Source of the DNA: a virus | Virus record (IMG/VR): IMGVR_UViG_3300007538_000020 | Span: 30,982-94,981 of that record | Length of the DNA stretch: 64,000 bases | Direction: 5' to 3' (one strand) | Shown: piece after piece, positions 1 through 8,029 of the stretch | How the letters are laid out: the number at the start of each line of letters is the position of its first letter | Numbering within the stretch: position 1 is the stretch's first letter | The notes under the pieces: generated by a model | The model's input: the letters and a program-made list of their open reading frames with translations, nothing else | What the model was told of the DNA's origin: nothing | Databases searched by the model: none | Program-made: the position numbers and the translations under genes

Positions 1-225
1 TTGGGTGAATTCGGTGAAAGTCTAGAAGTAGATAACCCCGAGCCAAGCTAAGTTTAGGTTAAAAGAACTTAGAAGGTGTAACGCATAGTAAATGAGCCTA
101 ACAATAATTTTACCACGAGCGCCCAACATTTTTAATAAAAAATGATGATGTATGCTGAACTGTAGATATAACAATTATGAAACTACAGAATTTAAAGATA
201 AAAAACTTTAAAGATAACAACATTG
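1..225 (+). ncRNA. Group I self-splicing intron (3' portion, P3-P9; IA-like), interrupting ung
   Basis: Pairings read directly: P3 ttgggtg(1-7)/cgcccaa(120-126); P4 ttcgg(10-14)/ccgag(38-42); P5 tcta/taga; P6a ctaagtt(48-54)/aacttag(66-72); P7 gcata(83-87)/tatgc(151-155); P7.1 gtaaa(88-92)/tttac(109-113); P8 cattttt(127-133)/aaaaatg(138-144); P9 ctgtag(160-165)/ctacag(183-188); tttaaag(191-197)/ctttaaa(206-212). Terminal G225 is followed by CCA TAT CAT (PYH). Confidence 0.88.
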
Positions 226-726
226 CCATATCATACTCCTAATGTAGCAGATGGTTTATGTTTTAGTTCTAATCTAAAACATATAGTACCACCTAGTCTT
301 AGAAATATTTTAACTGAAATGTATAATGATATTTATAATAAAAAACAATTAGATATTAAAGCTAATCCTAATTTGGAATATTTAGCTAAACAAAACGTTT
401 TATTATTAAATACAGCATTAACAGTTGAAAGAGGTTCGCCTGGTTCTCATACAGAATTATGGAAACCATTTACTAATTATGTTTTAAATAAAATTAGTGA
501 TAGAAAAACAGATAATATAGTAATCTTTTTATTATGGGGAAATAAAGCGAAAGAATATAAACCTATAATAGAAAAAAATAACTTTAATATCATATATGAA
601 GCAGCTCATCCATCTCCATTTTCAGCATATAATGGTTTCTTTGGATGTAGACATTTTAGCTCTGTAAATGAAACATTAAGGTTTTATAATGAAAATAGTA
701 TTAATTGGATTGATGAAATTAATTAA
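226..726 (+). CDS. ung: Uracil-DNA glycosylase family 1, 3' exon (exon 1 lies upstream of the window)
   Basis: Contains PYH (second half of GQDPYH), PPSLRNI, VLLLNTALTV, FLLWG, HPSP and FFGCRHFS. The TTG start at 223 in the ORF track is the intron end, not a real start. Confidence 0.92.
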   Translation, partial: PYHTPNVADGLCFSSNLKHIVPPSLRNILTEMYNDIYNKKQLDIKANPNLEYLAKQNVLLLNTALTVERGSPGSHTELWKPFTNYVLNKISDRKTDNIVIFLLWGNKAKEYKPIIEKNNFNIIYEAAHPSPFSAYNGFFGCRHFSSVNETLRFYNENSINWIDEIN

Positions 727-1495
727 TAAATATAATCCTAAATTAGGAATAGAAGCTTTTAAGTTTGGAATAAAATATGCAGCATGTTTAAAAGGTGAAA
801 ATGATGAATTTTATAATATAACAGCTTTTGCTACATGTAAAGATTTATTTCCAGACATTTACTGGTATGAATACAAAGGAAAGAAAGAGAAAAAAGAAAA
901 ATATATATATGGTTACGACTTATTATATACAGAAGAATATGTAAAAAATGATATTAATCATATTTGTTTACAATTAAATAAAGAACAGTTTGAATTATAT
1001 AATAAGAATTTAGAATTTTATACTGATTTTTGTAATAAATATTTGAAATATTTTAATGTAAAAGGAGAAATTAAAACCTTTGTAATTGAGAATGAAACTA
1101 AAGATGAATTTAATTATGTAATGTGTGAATTTCCAAAACACTTATGTGATAAACATTTTTTAGCTTCTATGTTAATATTAGTATTGAGAAATGGAATATA
1201 TCTAAGTAAAAAGAGAATATCTTTTAAACTCTATATTTTAGATTTAATTTCTATAGGTACAGAAATAGAGAACCAAAACAAAAAATCTACTATAATAACT
1301 ATAATAAGAGATTATTATTATTTCAAAAATATTATTAAAGTTTTATCTTTATTAAGAAAACATAAGAAGCATATAAAATCTTATTATAATTTTAATTATA
1401 TAGGAGATTCCCATGGATTTGGTGTTGTTAATATTTCAAATAATTTAGCGGATGAATCAAAATTTAAATACGTAGTAAATGAAAGTTTCATATAG
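689..1495 (+). CDS. Hypothetical protein, first gene of the ligase cluster
   Basis: 268-aa ORF overlapping both neighbours; no recognisable motif. Confidence 0.6.
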   Translation: MKIVLIGLMKLINKYNPKLGIEAFKFGIKYAACLKGENDEFYNITAFATCKDLFPDIYWYEYKGKKEKKEKYIYGYDLLYTEEYVKNDINHICLQLNKEQFELYNKNLEFYTDFCNKYLKYFNVKGEIKTFVIENETKDEFNYVMCEFPKHLCDKHFLASMLILVLRNGIYLSKKRISFKLYILDLISIGTEIENQNKKSTIITIIRDYYYFKNIIKVLSLLRKHKKHIKSYYNFNYIGDSHGFGVVNISNNLADESKFKYVVNESFI

Positions 1496-2273
1496 AATAA
1501 AAATAAGAAGTAGACATCCTAGTCATAGTGTCTTAAGAAAAAATTTACCTAAATTAGGTTTTACTAGTATTGTTAGATTAGGCAGTACTACAGAATTACT
1601 AGATAAATCCAAAGTAGAATTAAATTCAATAGAATCAATAAGAACTAGTAGTAATAAACTACTAATGAAAGAAGCTTTTACAAAACATAATGTTAAAACA
1701 GCAGATTGGTTTAAATTAATTGATATAAATAAAGAAGAACTTCCTTTCGAATATCCTATTGTAATAAAAAACATTTATGGAAGTAGAAACACAGGTAATC
1801 ACTTTATTTCTAATAGAGAGGAATTAGATTCTTTTTTAAGTAAAAGTATTAATTTAAACAATTATATTGTTGAGAAATATTATAATTATAATAAAGAATA
1901 TAGATTACATGTAAATAAACATACTTGTTTTTATACTTGTAGAAAAATGTTAAAGACTGATGCTAAAAATAGATGGTTCAGAAATGATTCTAATTCTATT
2001 TGGGTTTTAGAAGAAAATGAATTATTTGATAGACCAGCTAATTGGAATGAAATAGTTAATGAATGTATAAAAGCTTTAAATGCTGTTGGATTAGATTTCG
2101 GAGCAATTGATTTAAGAGTACAATCAAATAAAGATAAGAAAGAAAATATAAGACAAAATCCTGATTTTATAGTTATTGAAACAAATAGTGCTCCTAGTTT
2201 TGGAAATATAACACAACAAAAATATTTAGAAGAAATACCTAAAATGTTAATTAACAAATACAACAATAGATGA
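1479..2273 (+). CDS. ATP-grasp ligase (RimK-like, phiEco32-type)
   Basis: SNKLLMKEAF, YPIVIK..GSRNTG, VEKY..KEYRLHV, GLDFGAIDL and IETNSAPS (ExN) motifs. Confidence 0.88.
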   Translation: MKVSYRIKIRSRHPSHSVLRKNLPKLGFTSIVRLGSTTELLDKSKVELNSIESIRTSSNKLLMKEAFTKHNVKTADWFKLIDINKEELPFEYPIVIKNIYGSRNTGNHFISNREELDSFLSKSINLNNYIVEKYYNYNKEYRLHVNKHTCFYTCRKMLKTDAKNRWFRNDSNSIWVLEENELFDRPANWNEIVNECIKALNAVGLDFGAIDLRVQSNKDKKENIRQNPDFIVIETNSAPSFGNITQQKYLEEIPKMLINKYNNR

Positions 2274-4426
2274 TTTTAAGTAATATTTTATTAACGCTTT
2301 TATTTTGGTATAGTTTGATAACTTTTATAAGTTTGATGTTTACTAAACCAAAATATAATACCTTTAATTGTGGGTTATTTGGATACATAGGTCCTAAAGC
2401 TGATGTAATGGCTTTAAAAATACTGGGCTTATATAATAATGATAGAGGAGGAGACTCATGTGGTTTTGCTTTAAAAACCGATAATTTAGATGATTTTATT
2501 ATTGATAAAGGTTTTGATAGTAAAAAAGACTGGGGAGATTTTATAGTTTCATCTGAATTATGTAATTATGAAGATGAAACAGTTAAAGTTTTCTTAGGTC
2601 ATACTAGAAAAGCTTCAAAGTTTTATTCTAAAGAGAAAGAAACACATCCTTTCTTAATACAAAATCAAGATACAAATATAGATATAATAGGAGCACATAA
2701 TGGCACTATCCATAATATGACTGATTTATTAACTAAATATGATATGTCAGATGTTAAAGACATAATGGATTTAGATAGTTATCAATTATTTTCTATATTA
2801 AATACTAAGAATTATTCTGTATTAAAAAACTACGAAGGAACAGCTACTTTAACATGGACTTTTCCTAAAGAAAATGATTCTTTGTATATATATAAAGGAG
2901 CTTGTTTAGTTGAACAATGGAATAATACAACCAAAAAACATGAAGAAGTATTAGTAGAAGAAAGACCATTATATTATGTTAGAATAAATGATGGTTACTA
3001 TTATTCTTCTTTATACATGTCTTTAAAAGCTTGTTTTCCTAATAATAAAGTAGAATGTTTTCCTACAAACAAAGTTATTAAACTTTATTTAAACAAGGAT
3101 AATAAAGTAATAGTAAGTTATCCTAAAACTTCTGATGTAGATAGAAGTGATAACAAACAAAATGCTAATACTGGTAGAAAAAGAGTTGTTATTACTAATG
3201 TAAATAACAACATAAACACTTATTCTAGCGCTGCAAAGCAGACAGCCCTTCCATGGGAGAAAGAAACGGAAAAAACAGAAAGCTCGAAGAAGACGAAGAT
3301 GATTCAAGATTTCAGTTCTTTAAAAAATATTTTTGGAACTGGAATTAGTATTTTGTCAGAGCCTAAGTTAGATGTTTTAGACACAACTATTCATTTAGAC
3401 CGAGTTGTGTATTGGAGGGGTAGGTACTATAAAAATGGTCATTTGTGTCATGGAACATTTACATTAGATAAGTTCGGATATAAAAAAGATTCACCTTTAT
3501 TTAGTCAATATCAAGGACCTAGAATTTATTATTTTATTTTAGGTATGTTGGTAACTGAATCTGATTTTGGAAAATTATATAATGTCAACACAGATAGTGC
3601 TATTAAAAACAAAGTATTTGTAACTGATTCTTGTTATATAGATGTAGCTTTTATGAAAGATTGTTTAGTATCAGGTCATTATTATTCAGATACTACTTAT
3701 GATTTTATAGAAACCCATAGTAATTATGGATATGAACTATTTAGTTCAGATGGATTTAATGAGAAAGAAATTGAATACAAACCTTTATTTTCAAATAGAG
3801 TATATAAGATTTCATCAGATGATAAAGTATTAGGTTTAATGGAAGATATGTTTGATTCTTATATTGTTGTAAAAAAGGATTCTAGTCCAGGGTGGCTAAA
3901 GAAAACTGTACAATATTCAGTATCTTCAGCTAGTACAGAATTTATTTACTTAAATGGTTCTAAAAATCAAAATATGATTATTACAAATGACGATAATGAT
4001 AATACCAAATCTAACTCTAATTCTGATTTCAATCCTACTGAATTAACAGAAGATGTAAAAGATGTAGAAGATGCTCCATTCGATAAAGATATGGAAATGA
4101 TTTATGACGATAAAAATTATATGGAAGGAATAGCGTTAGAATTAAAAAGAGAAATTTGTGATAAATATATTTCATTTGTAGAAACAGAAATAGACAATTT
4201 TATAAAAGAAATAGAAGAAGCTAATGAAGAAATTGTCTATGCTACAGTTAATAAAGATGAAGATTTGGAACAAGTAGATTCTACTTTAAATCGTTTTATT
4301 AAAGATTTAAAGCAAGCTAAACTTTACTTAAAAGAAAGAATGAATTCTGCTATGAAAAATAGCGAGTTTATTGATTTGAATATAGAAGATAAGAATAGCA
4401 AACAGGAAATTCTTATTAATGATTAA
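2270..4426 (+). CDS. Class-II (Ntn) glutamine amidotransferase domain protein with long C-terminal extension
   Basis: CGLFG, RGGDSCG, LGHTRKAS, HPF, AHNGTI, DS and ERPL motifs. Confidence 0.85.
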   Translation: MILSNILLTLLFWYSLITFISLMFTKPKYNTFNCGLFGYIGPKADVMALKILGLYNNDRGGDSCGFALKTDNLDDFIIDKGFDSKKDWGDFIVSSELCNYEDETVKVFLGHTRKASKFYSKEKETHPFLIQNQDTNIDIIGAHNGTIHNMTDLLTKYDMSDVKDIMDLDSYQLFSILNTKNYSVLKNYEGTATLTWTFPKENDSLYIYKGACLVEQWNNTTKKHEEVLVEERPLYYVRINDGYYYSSLYMSLKACFPNNKVECFPTNKVIKLYLNKDNKVIVSYPKTSDVDRSDNKQNANTGRKRVVITNVNNNINTYSSAAKQTALPWEKETEKTESSKKTKMIQDFSSLKNIFGTGISILSEPKLDVLDTTIHLDRVVYWRGRYYKNGHLCHGTFTLDKFGYKKDSPLFSQYQGPRIYYFILGMLVTESDFGKLYNVNTDSAIKNKVFVTDSCYIDVAFMKDCLVSGHYYSDTTYDFIETHSNYGYELFSSDGFNEKEIEYKPLFSNRVYKISSDDKVLGLMEDMFDSYIVVKKDSSPGWLKKTVQYSVSSASTEFIYLNGSKNQNMIITNDDNDNTKSNSNSDFNPTELTEDVKDVEDAPFDKDMEMIYDDKNYMEGIALELKREICDKYISFVETEIDNFIKEIEEANEEIVYATVNKDEDLEQVDSTLNRFIKDLKQAKLYLKERMNSAMKNSEFIDLNIEDKNSKQEILIND

Positions 4427-4437
4427 TTTTTTAAAAT

Positions 4438-6084
4438 ATGTCTATTATAATAAATGAAGACGTTGATATTGATATGAGTAATTTAAAAGTTGTTAGTGTT
4501 AGTGGTAAAGAAATTCCAAGAACAAATGCTATTAGAATTAAAGGAAGATGGTATGAAAGAAATGTAGATTGTTTCATGATTCCTAATATTGGAAACAAAA
4601 TAGGAAAAAATGGAAAAGACTATATGTGGCATATTAAGAATAATGGTATAATTGATTTGGATTTTGAAAAAAATGAATATAGAAGAATTAGTGATATGCT
4701 TAAAGAAGGCAAAGTAAAAGGTTATATAAATAAAAAACTTGACGTTGCTTACTTTACTATTAATCCTAATTATTCTGTATTGATTAAAGAATCTTTGGGA
4801 GACCCTGGTTTATATTGTTTAAATAAAGAATTAATAGAAAACAATCCTAAATTTGTAGAAGATTTAGTAACAGGAATATATTATGTAAAAGATAATATTA
4901 ATTCTTCTTTACTAAAAAATATTACAAAGAAAAGAATAGACCATAACCAATATCCTGAAGGTTTAACCTATAATGCTGACCCTAATAATATACTATATCT
5001 AAAAATTATAGAAGAGCATACTAAATACAAAAATAGTATGAAACCTTCTAAAAACGTAAAAATAATTGCTAATAACTTATTAGAAAATTATTCTTTTGGT
5101 GTTGAGTTTGAAACTATAAATGGAACTATACCTAAGAATCTTTGTTCTATGTATGGTATAGTACCACTTAGAGATGGTTCTTTAAAAGGTCCTTACGGAG
5201 AAGGTATTGAATTTACAACAGTACCTTTAAGTGGAGCTGTTGGATTAGAAATCCTAAAAAATCAAACTTACGAATTATCTAAAAGATGTGAAATATCTCA
5301 TAATTGTAGTATGCATTTACATATATCTGGTATACCAAAAACAAGATATAATGCGATGGCTGTTTATAAGTTATTTTATCTATTAGAGGAAGAGTTCTTT
5401 GGTTTAGTTCAACCTTATAAAGAGAATCCTGGAAAACTATGTTCTGATTGGAAAAAGTTTTCTTCAGACATAAGAGACAATTATTGTAGCAAATTACCTA
5501 AATTTAGTTTTTTAAATAAAACTGTATCTGAATCTGAAGCTATAAATTATTTTAAAGATTTATTTATATTTTTAGCTGACCATTCAGAGATAACAAAAGA
5601 AAGTAGTATTTATAATTTTGAAGCTTATGTACATCCTAAGAATAGAAAATGGTTGATTAATAGTAGATATTATTGGGTTAACTTTGTTCCATTTGTATTT
5701 AATAGAAGTGAAACTATAGAGATGCGTTTACATACGCCAACTCTTAATTTTACTAAAACAAGTTGTTGGTTATTTATAAATTTAGCTGTATTAAAATTTG
5801 CAGAAAATAATGCTAATCTTATTTTAAATAAAGATTTTAATAAGATTACATTAGAAGATGTAGTTAAAGGATATCTAACTGACTTCGGAAATACTAAATT
5901 AAGTAGAACAGAAGAAGAAAACTTAATAATAAAAGATTTTGTTGATTACTTATTGGCTTATATTAATAATAGAAAAGAGTTATACTTTAGCAATAAAGAA
6001 AAGAAATTATATTACGATAAAAAAGAATTTGTTGACGATAATACATTTTCGTTGAAACATAAAAGAATGAATAGTCTTTATTAA
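4438..6084 (+). CDS. Putative amidoligase (COOH-NH2 ligase, glutamine synthetase / gamma-GCS fold)
   Basis: SFGVEFET (ExE), RDGSL, IEFTT, CSMHLHIS, SRYYWVN and TIEMRLH motifs. Confidence 0.82.
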   Translation: MSIIINEDVDIDMSNLKVVSVSGKEIPRTNAIRIKGRWYERNVDCFMIPNIGNKIGKNGKDYMWHIKNNGIIDLDFEKNEYRRISDMLKEGKVKGYINKKLDVAYFTINPNYSVLIKESLGDPGLYCLNKELIENNPKFVEDLVTGIYYVKDNINSSLLKNITKKRIDHNQYPEGLTYNADPNNILYLKIIEEHTKYKNSMKPSKNVKIIANNLLENYSFGVEFETINGTIPKNLCSMYGIVPLRDGSLKGPYGEGIEFTTVPLSGAVGLEILKNQTYELSKRCEISHNCSMHLHISGIPKTRYNAMAVYKLFYLLEEEFFGLVQPYKENPGKLCSDWKKFSSDIRDNYCSKLPKFSFLNKTVSESEAINYFKDLFIFLADHSEITKESSIYNFEAYVHPKNRKWLINSRYYWVNFVPFVFNRSETIEMRLHTPTLNFTKTSCWLFINLAVLKFAENNANLILNKDFNKITLEDVVKGYLTDFGNTKLSRTEEENLIIKDFVDYLLAYINNRKELYFSNKEKKLYYDKKEFVDDNTFSLKHKRMNSLY

Positions 6085-6458: not shown

Positions 6459-7476
6459 AACAAAAGATTTAATAAGTCAAAGTGATTTAACATTACTAAG
6501 TTTTAGTCCTTTAGCTTATTATAATAAAAAGAATTTAAATCCATTAGAAGAAGTATCTAAATCTTATTTTGATTTAGGTAGTTTAGTAGATGCTTTATTA
6601 TCAGAACCACAAGAAGTAATAGATAAACAATTTGCAATTGATTCTAATATAAATAAACCTTCTGATAAATTACTGGATTTATGTAATCAAATAGTTAAAG
6701 AAGTATATGAATATACTAATTTATTAGGTATTAGTAATCCTAAATTATTAGAAGATCCATTAATAATATTAGATGCTAGAGAAAAAACTGGATATAATAA
6801 AAATTTAAAAGAAGATACTCTTATTAATAAGGTATTAGAATATAAAGATTACATGTTATTTAAATTAGAAAATTATAATAAAGTAATAATTGATTCTAAT
6901 ACTTATAATAAAGCACATGAAATAGTTAATAGTTTATTAACTAATGATAAGATTAGTAAGATATTAGATAATTGTAAACAAAAACAATTAGAAATATATT
7001 GGAATTATAATGAAGAAGATTGTAAATCTAAATTAGATTTTGTAAAAGTAGATGAAGTAAATAAAGAAATAAACATATATGATTTAAAAACTACTTCTGA
7101 TTATGTTTATAGCTTTCCTAAATCTATTATAAAATTCAGATATGATTTACAAGGAGCATTTTATGTTAGTGCTCTTTATGAATATTATTCTAATAATCCT
7201 GAATTATTAAAAGATGATTTAATTAAGTATACTTTTAATTTTTATTTTATAGTTGAATCAACAAGTTATCCAGGAACACCTTTACTATATAAACTATCTG
7301 AAAAAGATTTAAGTTGTGGTGTATCAGGTGGTATTTTAAAATCTAATAAAATAAAATTAAAAGGATTTGTCGAATTAATTGATGATTTAAAATGGCATAA
7401 AGAAAATAATCTTTGGGAATATCCTAGAGAAGTATATGAAAATAACATGGAAATAGAAACAAATATTTATGAATAA
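6448..7476 (+). CDS. RecE / exonuclease VIII-like PD-(D/E)xK exonuclease
   Basis: LGSLVD, CKSKLD, IYDLKTT and YDLQGAFY motifs. Confidence 0.8.
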   Translation: MSYKTKDLISQSDLTLLSFSPLAYYNKKNLNPLEEVSKSYFDLGSLVDALLSEPQEVIDKQFAIDSNINKPSDKLLDLCNQIVKEVYEYTNLLGISNPKLLEDPLIILDAREKTGYNKNLKEDTLINKVLEYKDYMLFKLENYNKVIIDSNTYNKAHEIVNSLLTNDKISKILDNCKQKQLEIYWNYNEEDCKSKLDFVKVDEVNKEINIYDLKTTSDYVYSFPKSIIKFRYDLQGAFYVSALYEYYSNNPELLKDDLIKYTFNFYFIVESTSYPGTPLLYKLSEKDLSCGVSGGILKSNKIKLKGFVELIDDLKWHKENNLWEYPREVYENNMEIETNIYE

Positions 7477-8029
7477 CAATTATAATTATAGTAGTAAATT
7501 CTTACTTCCTTTTTTAAGACCTAATTATGGAATGTTATTTAATGCTTTTAATTTAAAAAATTGTTATATCGGAGATGAGAGATTTGTTCCTAAAGAAAAG
7601 AATCGTTTATATTTACTTTTTCATCCTAAACCTAATGATTTAAATGAATTTAAAAAAATACTTCAAAACAAAGGTATACCAAATATGGAATTTTATTATC
7701 CAACAAATAATATTTTAGAATATGTTGTTGTATGTAATTTTCCAAAAGATTGCTTTTATTATTTAAAAGAATTTATACAAGGAAGATATTCTAAAATTAA
7801 GCAAACAGATATTAACAAATACTTTCCAAGAATGGTTAGAAACGTATACGGAGATTCTATTATATCTCCTACTTGGGAAATATTAGTTAAATCTAAAAGA
7901 TTAAAGAAACAATTAGAACAAGATTTAGAAGTAGAGATAGATGATGAACAGGAATTATTCAGTATTCCTTATAACAATAGAGAAATAATCGAACAAAGTA
8001 AAACAAAATTATTTAATTATGTCGAATGA
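7469..8029 (+). CDS. Hypothetical phage protein
   Basis: 186-aa ORF, tightly coupled to its neighbours. Confidence 0.6.
   Translation: MNNNYNYSSKFLLPFLRPNYGMLFNAFNLKNCYIGDERFVPKEKNRLYLLFHPKPNDLNEFKKILQNKGIPNMEFYYPTNNILEYVVVCNFPKDCFYYLKEFIQGRYSKIKQTDINKYFPRMVRNVYGDSIISPTWEILVKSKRLKKQLEQDLEVEIDDEQELFSIPYNNREIIEQSKTKLFNYVE

Follow-up and report, generated by a model that had tools for sequence, protein, structure and literature searches.

A probable mobile group IA intron with an I-SceI-like endonuclease gene in the uracil-DNA glycosylase gene of a freshwater crAss-like phage

The group IA introns of the T4 genes td, nrdB and nrdD (sunY), with I-TevI, I-TevII and I-TevIII, lie in genes of nucleotide and DNA metabolism of a virulent phage, as does the element described here. 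The open reading frames of the T4 introns sit in the P6 or P9 loops. Introns in nrd, DNA polymerase and lysin genes of Bacillus and Staphylococcus phages are of the same broad kind (PMC3984707), and the 2014 review of bacterial group I introns that covers them makes no mention of uracil (PMC3984707). In a survey of crAss-like phages (Yutin et al. 2021; PMC7886860), introns were recognised via LAGLIDADG and other endonuclease domains in the genes for MCP, PolB, primase, ATP_43b and RNAP, and UDG was listed only as a conserved gene. A literature search for group I intron or homing endonuclease combined with uracil-DNA glycosylase (UNG) found no report of a UNG intron.

The window, i.e. the whole stretch of DNA analysed (64,000 nt), corresponds to bases 30982-94981 of an IMG/VR record of 94,981 bp (~95 kb) with a completeness estimate of 92%. 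The 1.5 kb 5' of the window was included as locus L001, where the window position equals the L001 position minus 1500. The phage has a GC content of 26%; its TerL, portal and major head proteins all have matches among phage families. By TerL, Cellulophaga phage phi14:2 is nearest (33.6%), and crAss-like phages of Flavobacterium and Bacteroides come next; the phage DNA, as a whole stretch or in parts, occurs in 11 DNA sequencing runs from seven freshwater/aquatic studies, and no RNA run was found to contain it. Based on this TerL affinity and the occurrence in freshwater runs, the virus was assigned as a freshwater crAss-like phage, and its host is probably a member of the Bacteroidota. UNG sits inside a run of peptide/amide-ligase-type genes (window 689-6084 and L001 103-495), with a GGACT/AIG2-like gamma-glutamyl cyclotransferase on its 5' side (Pfam 9.5e-17) and, on its 3' side, a RimK-like ATP-grasp protein (weak match, 6e-4), a protein of 718 aa that has CGLFG at the N-terminus and on visual inspection resembles class II amidotransferases, and an amidoligase (PHROG 2443, 2e-16). 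The layout predicted for the split gene is as follows.

L001 482-694: UNG exon 1, 71 codons, MEYSNIYKK...LKVVILGQD; last codons GGA CAG GAT, then directly TAA
L001 695-1725 (G000:C1:30176-31206): whole intron, 1,031 nt, preceded by U, with terminal G
806 nt 5' of the window: upstream portion of the intron, with a 55-nt leader, the LAGLIDADG gene and the guide sequence
L001 750-1499: endonuclease open reading frame, 249 aa, intact, in the P1 loop between 5' splice site and guide
L001 1488-1493: guide sequence GUCCUG, 7 nt 5' of P3
Window 1-225, + strand: 3' part of the intron, ribozyme core P3-P9.1 and terminal G
Window 226-726, + strand: UNG exon 2, 166 codons plus stop (724-726); opens CCA TAT CAT (PYH)

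Read from window position 226, the frame gives PYHTPNVADGLCFS... and matches Pfam UDG at 2.6e-11. It aligns to solved family-1 UNGs from their PYH (E. coli P65; best E value 1.5e-32) and covers residues 65-221 of the E. coli and human UNG structures at E ~1e-31. A preceding sequence-only reading of the window had this frame resume exactly at PYH, which is borne out by these alignments. The same reading had pointed upstream for an in-frame exon ending in GQD with a GAT codon and for a P1 guide, and both are present, with GAT at L001 694, 1,031 nt before window 226. A search with the exon-1 protein returned no match except itself. Joined in a script, L001 482-694 and 1726-2226 encode a 237-aa family-1 UNG, collinear with the uninterrupted UNGs of nine further viral contigs, which share the stretch ...VRVVILGQDPYH..., and carrying all family-1 hallmarks checked (GQD/PYH, LLLNTALTV with its Asn and HPSPFS with its His). 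Since the joined product is collinear, the intervening 1,031 nt behave as a phase-0 intron between the Asp and Pro codons. The split of GQDPYH between Asp (GAT) and Pro (CCA) that had been proposed thus agrees with the anatomy, U-1 being paired to a guide G and the intron ending in a terminal G.

On the record, the UNG halves stand as separate proteins from the gene callers, a 71-aa orphan and a 167-aa fragment, so that intact UDG genes are under-counted in crAss-like genome annotation. Protein P0101 (166 aa) was considered as another split UNG and rejected; it is a short gene call with a start before GQDPYH.

The ribozyme core was assessed with covariance models. Rfam Intron_gpI (RF00028) matched window 1-174 with 30.9 bits (E 4.9e-6 for 600 nt searched); the match was marked as cut short at its 5' end and lies below the gathering score of 50 bits. 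At the gathering threshold, neither the whole window nor the upstream 31 kb gave an intron match. The uncut locus (L001 1-2400) gave none in E-value mode either, because the ~790-nt insertion in the P1 loop defeats the model. A family-specific covariance model (R1) was built from nine other UNG introns, leaving the present sequence out, on a trimmed version of a 318-column alignment. R1 scored 99 bits on the full core of the present intron (E ~2e-23, a rough calibration) and 74.2 bits on the window part. The model search proposed in the sequence-only reading accordingly gave a partial Rfam match below gathering and a clear one with the UNG-intron model. The helices were drawn on the present sequence and are listed below (all + strand, window positions).

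P3, 1-7/120-126: UUGGGUG with CGCCCAA; 95.7% paired in UNG introns, 4/7 pairs changed on both sides
P4, 11-15/37-41: encloses P5; one U-C mismatch in the present copy
P5, 20-24/29-33: inside P4
P6, 42-44/75-77: invariant GCC/GGU, 100% paired
P6a, 48-54/66-72: 89% paired, compensatory changes
P7, 83-87/151-155: GCAUA with UAUGC; pseudoknot with P3; 100% paired in both alignments
P7.1 hairpin, 88-92/109-113: within P7
P8, 127-133/138-144: within P7
J8/7, 145-150
P9, 160-165/183-188: 94-96% paired
P9.1, 191-197/206-212: 91-100% paired, 7/7 pairs covary
3' tail GAUAACAACAUUG, 213-225: ends in omega-G at 225, the predicted 3' splice site

Pairs of this helix model (P3, P4, P5, P6, P6a, P7, P7.1, P8, P9 and P9.1) were counted in two alignments. 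Among 19 family members, 84.9% of the cells were paired, against 34-41% in slid controls, and 38 of the 57 pairs showed changes on both sides; among 10 UNG introns, 91.2% were paired (slid controls 32-44%), with changes on both sides in 33 of 57. No shuffle out of 500 reached the observed value in either alignment. P4 reads UGCUG/CAGCA in the relatives versus UCGGU/(C)CCGA here, with 4/5 pairs covarying, and P7 (GCAUA/UAUGC here versus GACUA/UAGUC elsewhere) differs by a double compensatory change, CA/UG against AC/GU. GAUAACAnnnUG stands directly 5' of the downstream exon in most family members, in UNG as well as in other genes. All core helices being present with covariation and 99 bits under R1, the earlier assignment of window 1-225 to a group I core ending in G225 is upheld, and the data support a group I intron of the IA type with predicted splicing.

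A match to window 131-153 at G000:13342-13364 (L002) was rejected as a second intron; it is an AT-rich chance match. Four of the DNA runs were searched and gave only short low-complexity matches and no contig joining across the intron, so that neither an intronless allele of this phage nor a spliced form was seen, a blank result.

The open reading frame in the P1 loop encodes a protein with a match to Pfam LAGLIDADG_2 (PF03161; 5.9e-34 over residues 62-220), and its closest solved relative is I-SceI (5.5e-11). Two motifs are found in one chain (...GSMLGDG... and ...WYFDDG...), of which the Gly and Asp are invariant in an alignment of 17 relatives (D70, D172/D173). The last codons, AGU CCU GUA UAA, overlap the guide. 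The representative library contains 4,686 relatives, the best being 37-48% identical at equal length; no close relative was found among deposited phage genomes, and an exact-peptide search of viral contigs returned nothing, while the alignment-based search did find relatives. The sequence-only reading had noted the absence of a homing endonuclease gene, which is correct for the window itself and incorrect for the intron, where the intact LAGLIDADG gene lies just upstream; the gene was invisible to it because it lies wholly outside the window, with a stop codon ending 2 nt short of base 1.

TAnnTTTG, the Bacteroidota -7 promoter consensus, occurs 5-35 nt 5' of the endonuclease start in 8/10 distinct introns, and in the present locus alone its frequency is not above chance. 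Its conserved position, the one support for it, offers only a lead towards a possible internal promoter for the endonuclease. In seven of the related UNG introns (L139-L143, L152, L195), the LAGLIDADG frame runs through the guide, P3, P4 and P5 into P6 and stops ~141 nt before the 3' splice site, ~85 nt being both coding and ribozyme core.

At the 5' splice site, GUCCUGU pairs with the exon-1 end ACAGGAU and U-1 stands opposite G, giving a P1 with U.G at the splice site. A local P1 hairpin, in which the first 6 intron nt would pair with UAUUUA 40 nt further on, was discarded, as it gives U-1 no G partner. The hexamer GUYCUG 5' of P3 is invariant in 15/15 distinct UNG introns, in which the linker UAUAAA is conserved too, and the base that follows the guide changes in step with the wobble base of the Gly codon at exon -7 (A-U in 8, U-A in 4, G.U in 1, mismatch in 2). 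For P10 in the relatives, exon-2 CCN pairs with the NGG that directly precedes the hexamer, with covariation (A-U, U-A and G-C) in the third pair, at the Pro wobble position. This pattern is, as a predicted pairing, the classical alignment of both exons on one guide. The Gln codon of GQD is CAG in all intron-bearing alleles and CAA in nine intronless relatives; CAG is the codon P1 needs and is rare in the present genome (CAA:CAG = 436:65).

Among the alternatives, a decaying intron survives best and is nonetheless unlikely: the element would be group I by descent, splice inefficiently, and leave UNG effectively a split pseudogene. P10 in the present phage has 1/3 pairs, versus 3/3 in most relatives, because a G-to-A change has turned GGU into AGU, which costs the guide one base and exchanges Gly for Ser in the endonuclease frame that overlaps it. 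This weakness, together with the one P4 mismatch and the Rfam score below gathering, speaks for decay. Two related introns (L146/L147) end in A, without the terminal G, and may be decaying, which would place decay within the lineage. Against it stand two open exons with their catalytic motifs kept, core helices intact bar the one P4 U-C mismatch (the deviation in P7 being a double compensatory change), a full-length endonuclease frame with both catalytic Asp present, and the retention of the rare P1-matching codon CAG. P10 is, in addition, dispensable in many group I introns. For the intact intron that is preferred here, the weak P10 and the P4 mismatch leave a small chance that the present copy splices poorly.

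The intron recurs at a single UNG nucleotide. When viral contigs were searched with the endonuclease alignment, 80 loci were obtained. In at least 20 other viral contigs, UNG exons flank the endonuclease, exon 1 ending at the D71 equivalent and exon 2 starting at P72 (tblastn); four further loci were partly resolved. The junctions are the same at the nucleotide level, namely GGNCAGGAT, an intron of 870-1,081 nt, and CCNTAYC, and identity to the present proteins at these loci is 29-41% for the UNGs and 25-47% for the endonucleases. The records with UNG introns are ~4 to 175 kb in size and come from >12 metagenomes, and 3/5 of those searched contain a distant homologue of the TerL of the present phage. 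In the record behind L141, this homologue (G001:C1:43903-45219) lies in a 1,085-aa open frame, versus 738 aa here, which may reflect an intein or a fusion. The description of ung as an unusual host gene in the sequence-only reading thus holds for the searched literature and not for metagenomes, where at least these 20 other contigs carry the same insertion.

Most UNG introns end in GAUAACAAnnUG, as the present one does. Those of L137 and L150/L151 sit at the same nucleotide with a 3' end ...GGGUAG or ...GGGAUAG, without P9.1 and without a P7.1-type hairpin, and represent either a second ribozyme subtype that uses this homing site or a derivative that has undergone strong reduction.

That there is no intron at all, and that two independent gene fragments are separated by a free-standing endonuclease gene followed by a chance RNA-like fold, is very improbable. 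Free-standing endonuclease genes between phage genes are common, and the missing Rfam match at the gathering threshold would be in line with such an arrangement. It is opposed by the 99 bits of the family-specific model, the extensive helix covariation, the covarying exon-guide pairing, and the GQD/PYH junction, which is precisely restored in 15 distinct sequences, each of which would have lost its enzyme had the insertion been free-standing. Another intervening element (intein, group II intron or split trans-spliced gene) has the least to recommend it, since, even though inteins also occur in crAss-like phages (PMC7886860), the stop codon directly after exon 1 and the endonuclease in another frame leave no in-frame intein, neither a reverse transcriptase nor a domain V is present, and the core matches group I models only.

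The locus is therefore very probably a mobile group IA intron with an I-SceI-like endonuclease interrupting the UNG gene of a freshwater crAss-like phage, with splicing and homing predicted from its anatomy. In short, the guide 5'-GUCCUGU would hold the exon-1 end ACAGGAU, with the 5' splice site marked by a U.G wobble, an external guanosine would attack after U-1, and G225 would then take the G-site in P7, so that the exons would be ligated to GAU-CCA and GQDPYH restored. As the intron begins with an in-frame UAA, unspliced RNA would give only a 71-residue stub, and UNG activity would for this reason depend on splicing. The endonuclease may be made from its own promoter-like TAnnTTTG element. 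During co-infection, it would be expected to cut intronless UNG alleles at GGNCAGGAT/CCNTAYC, the predicted intronless target being GGACAGGAT-CCATATCAT, and the intron would copy itself in. Such site-specific cleavage is suggested by the recurrence of the lineage at one UNG nucleotide in 20 other loci, and homing at a conserved site would account for a single endonuclease/intron lineage at one shared nucleotide in UNGs that are only ~30-40% identical.

Whether intron and endonuclease are kept for a function is a separate matter. For splicing, phage group I introns depend on both translation and the supply of guanosine. A splicing switch that times or throttles uracil excision, or a weapon that excludes co-infecting intronless relatives, is conceivable but unlikely; under either reading, function would be what keeps the intron in UNGs only 30-40% identical.

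The UNG intron is recurrent and apparently undescribed, its mechanism and logic being those of the textbook, i.e. a homing intron on the most conserved codons of an enzyme. With it, UDG would join the short list of phage genes hosting group I introns, and one LAGLIDADG/intron lineage would follow a single nucleotide in the codons of a catalytic loop through many uncultured, probably Bacteroidota-infecting phages. The family is a clean natural data set for covariation of P1 and P10 with codon wobble positions, and it supplies a candidate I-SceI-like enzyme whose target of ~18 bp can be predicted. The understanding of how such introns work is unchanged by the UNG case.

A second group I intron was noted in the same phage, in the gene for tRNA-Leu(UAA) ~23 kb 5' of the window (L212 7283-8090; G000:C1). 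The tRNA halves, the first ending ...GGACUU and the second reading AAAAUCC...GGUUCGACUCCC..., lie ~710 nt apart and enclose an HNH open reading frame (7353-7910, 185 aa) and the group I core motifs GUAGAGACUAGA ... GAAGAUAUAGUCC. The UNG-intron model matches weakly at 7849-8011 (15.5 bits, E 0.025); ARAGORN and Rfam at the gathering threshold missed this intron.

Outside UNG, the core motif GAGCCAAGC...AAGGTGTAACG was found in at least 119 viral contigs, 0/119 in UNG. An intron of the same family splits an RNR small-subunit gene in IMGVR_UViG_3300020045_006172 (L012 1870-3224, minus strand), with a GIY-YIG open reading frame upstream of the core; it was reached via a 19-nt exact match and scores 81.7 bits with Rfam. 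It shares with the UNG intron the identical 19-nt P4-P5 stretch, the GAGCCAAGC...AAGGUGUAACG core and the GAUAACA...G 3' tail, and differs in host gene, guide sequence and endonuclease family.

Compared with the described systems, the UNG intron has in common with the T4, Bacillus and Staphylococcus phage introns a position in conserved catalytic-motif codons, a homing-endonuclease gene and an IA core with an extra hairpin between P7 and P3'. It differs from the T4-type introns in its host gene, UNG, and in its endonuclease, which is LAGLIDADG (I-SceI-like) here and GIY-YIG or HNH there, as well as in the placement of the open reading frame, here located in the P1 loop and extending across the guide (in relatives across P3-P6). 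The introns of crAss-like phages (PMC7886860) belong to the same broad phage assemblage, with gut phages there and freshwater metagenomes here. I-SceI itself, encoded in the omega intron of the yeast mitochondrial LSU rRNA (PDB 1r7m), is a monomeric two-motif LAGLIDADG_2 enzyme like the product of the intron frame; the relationship is distant (E 5.5e-11), the phage protein having an extra conserved N-terminal segment of ~55 residues and another expected target.
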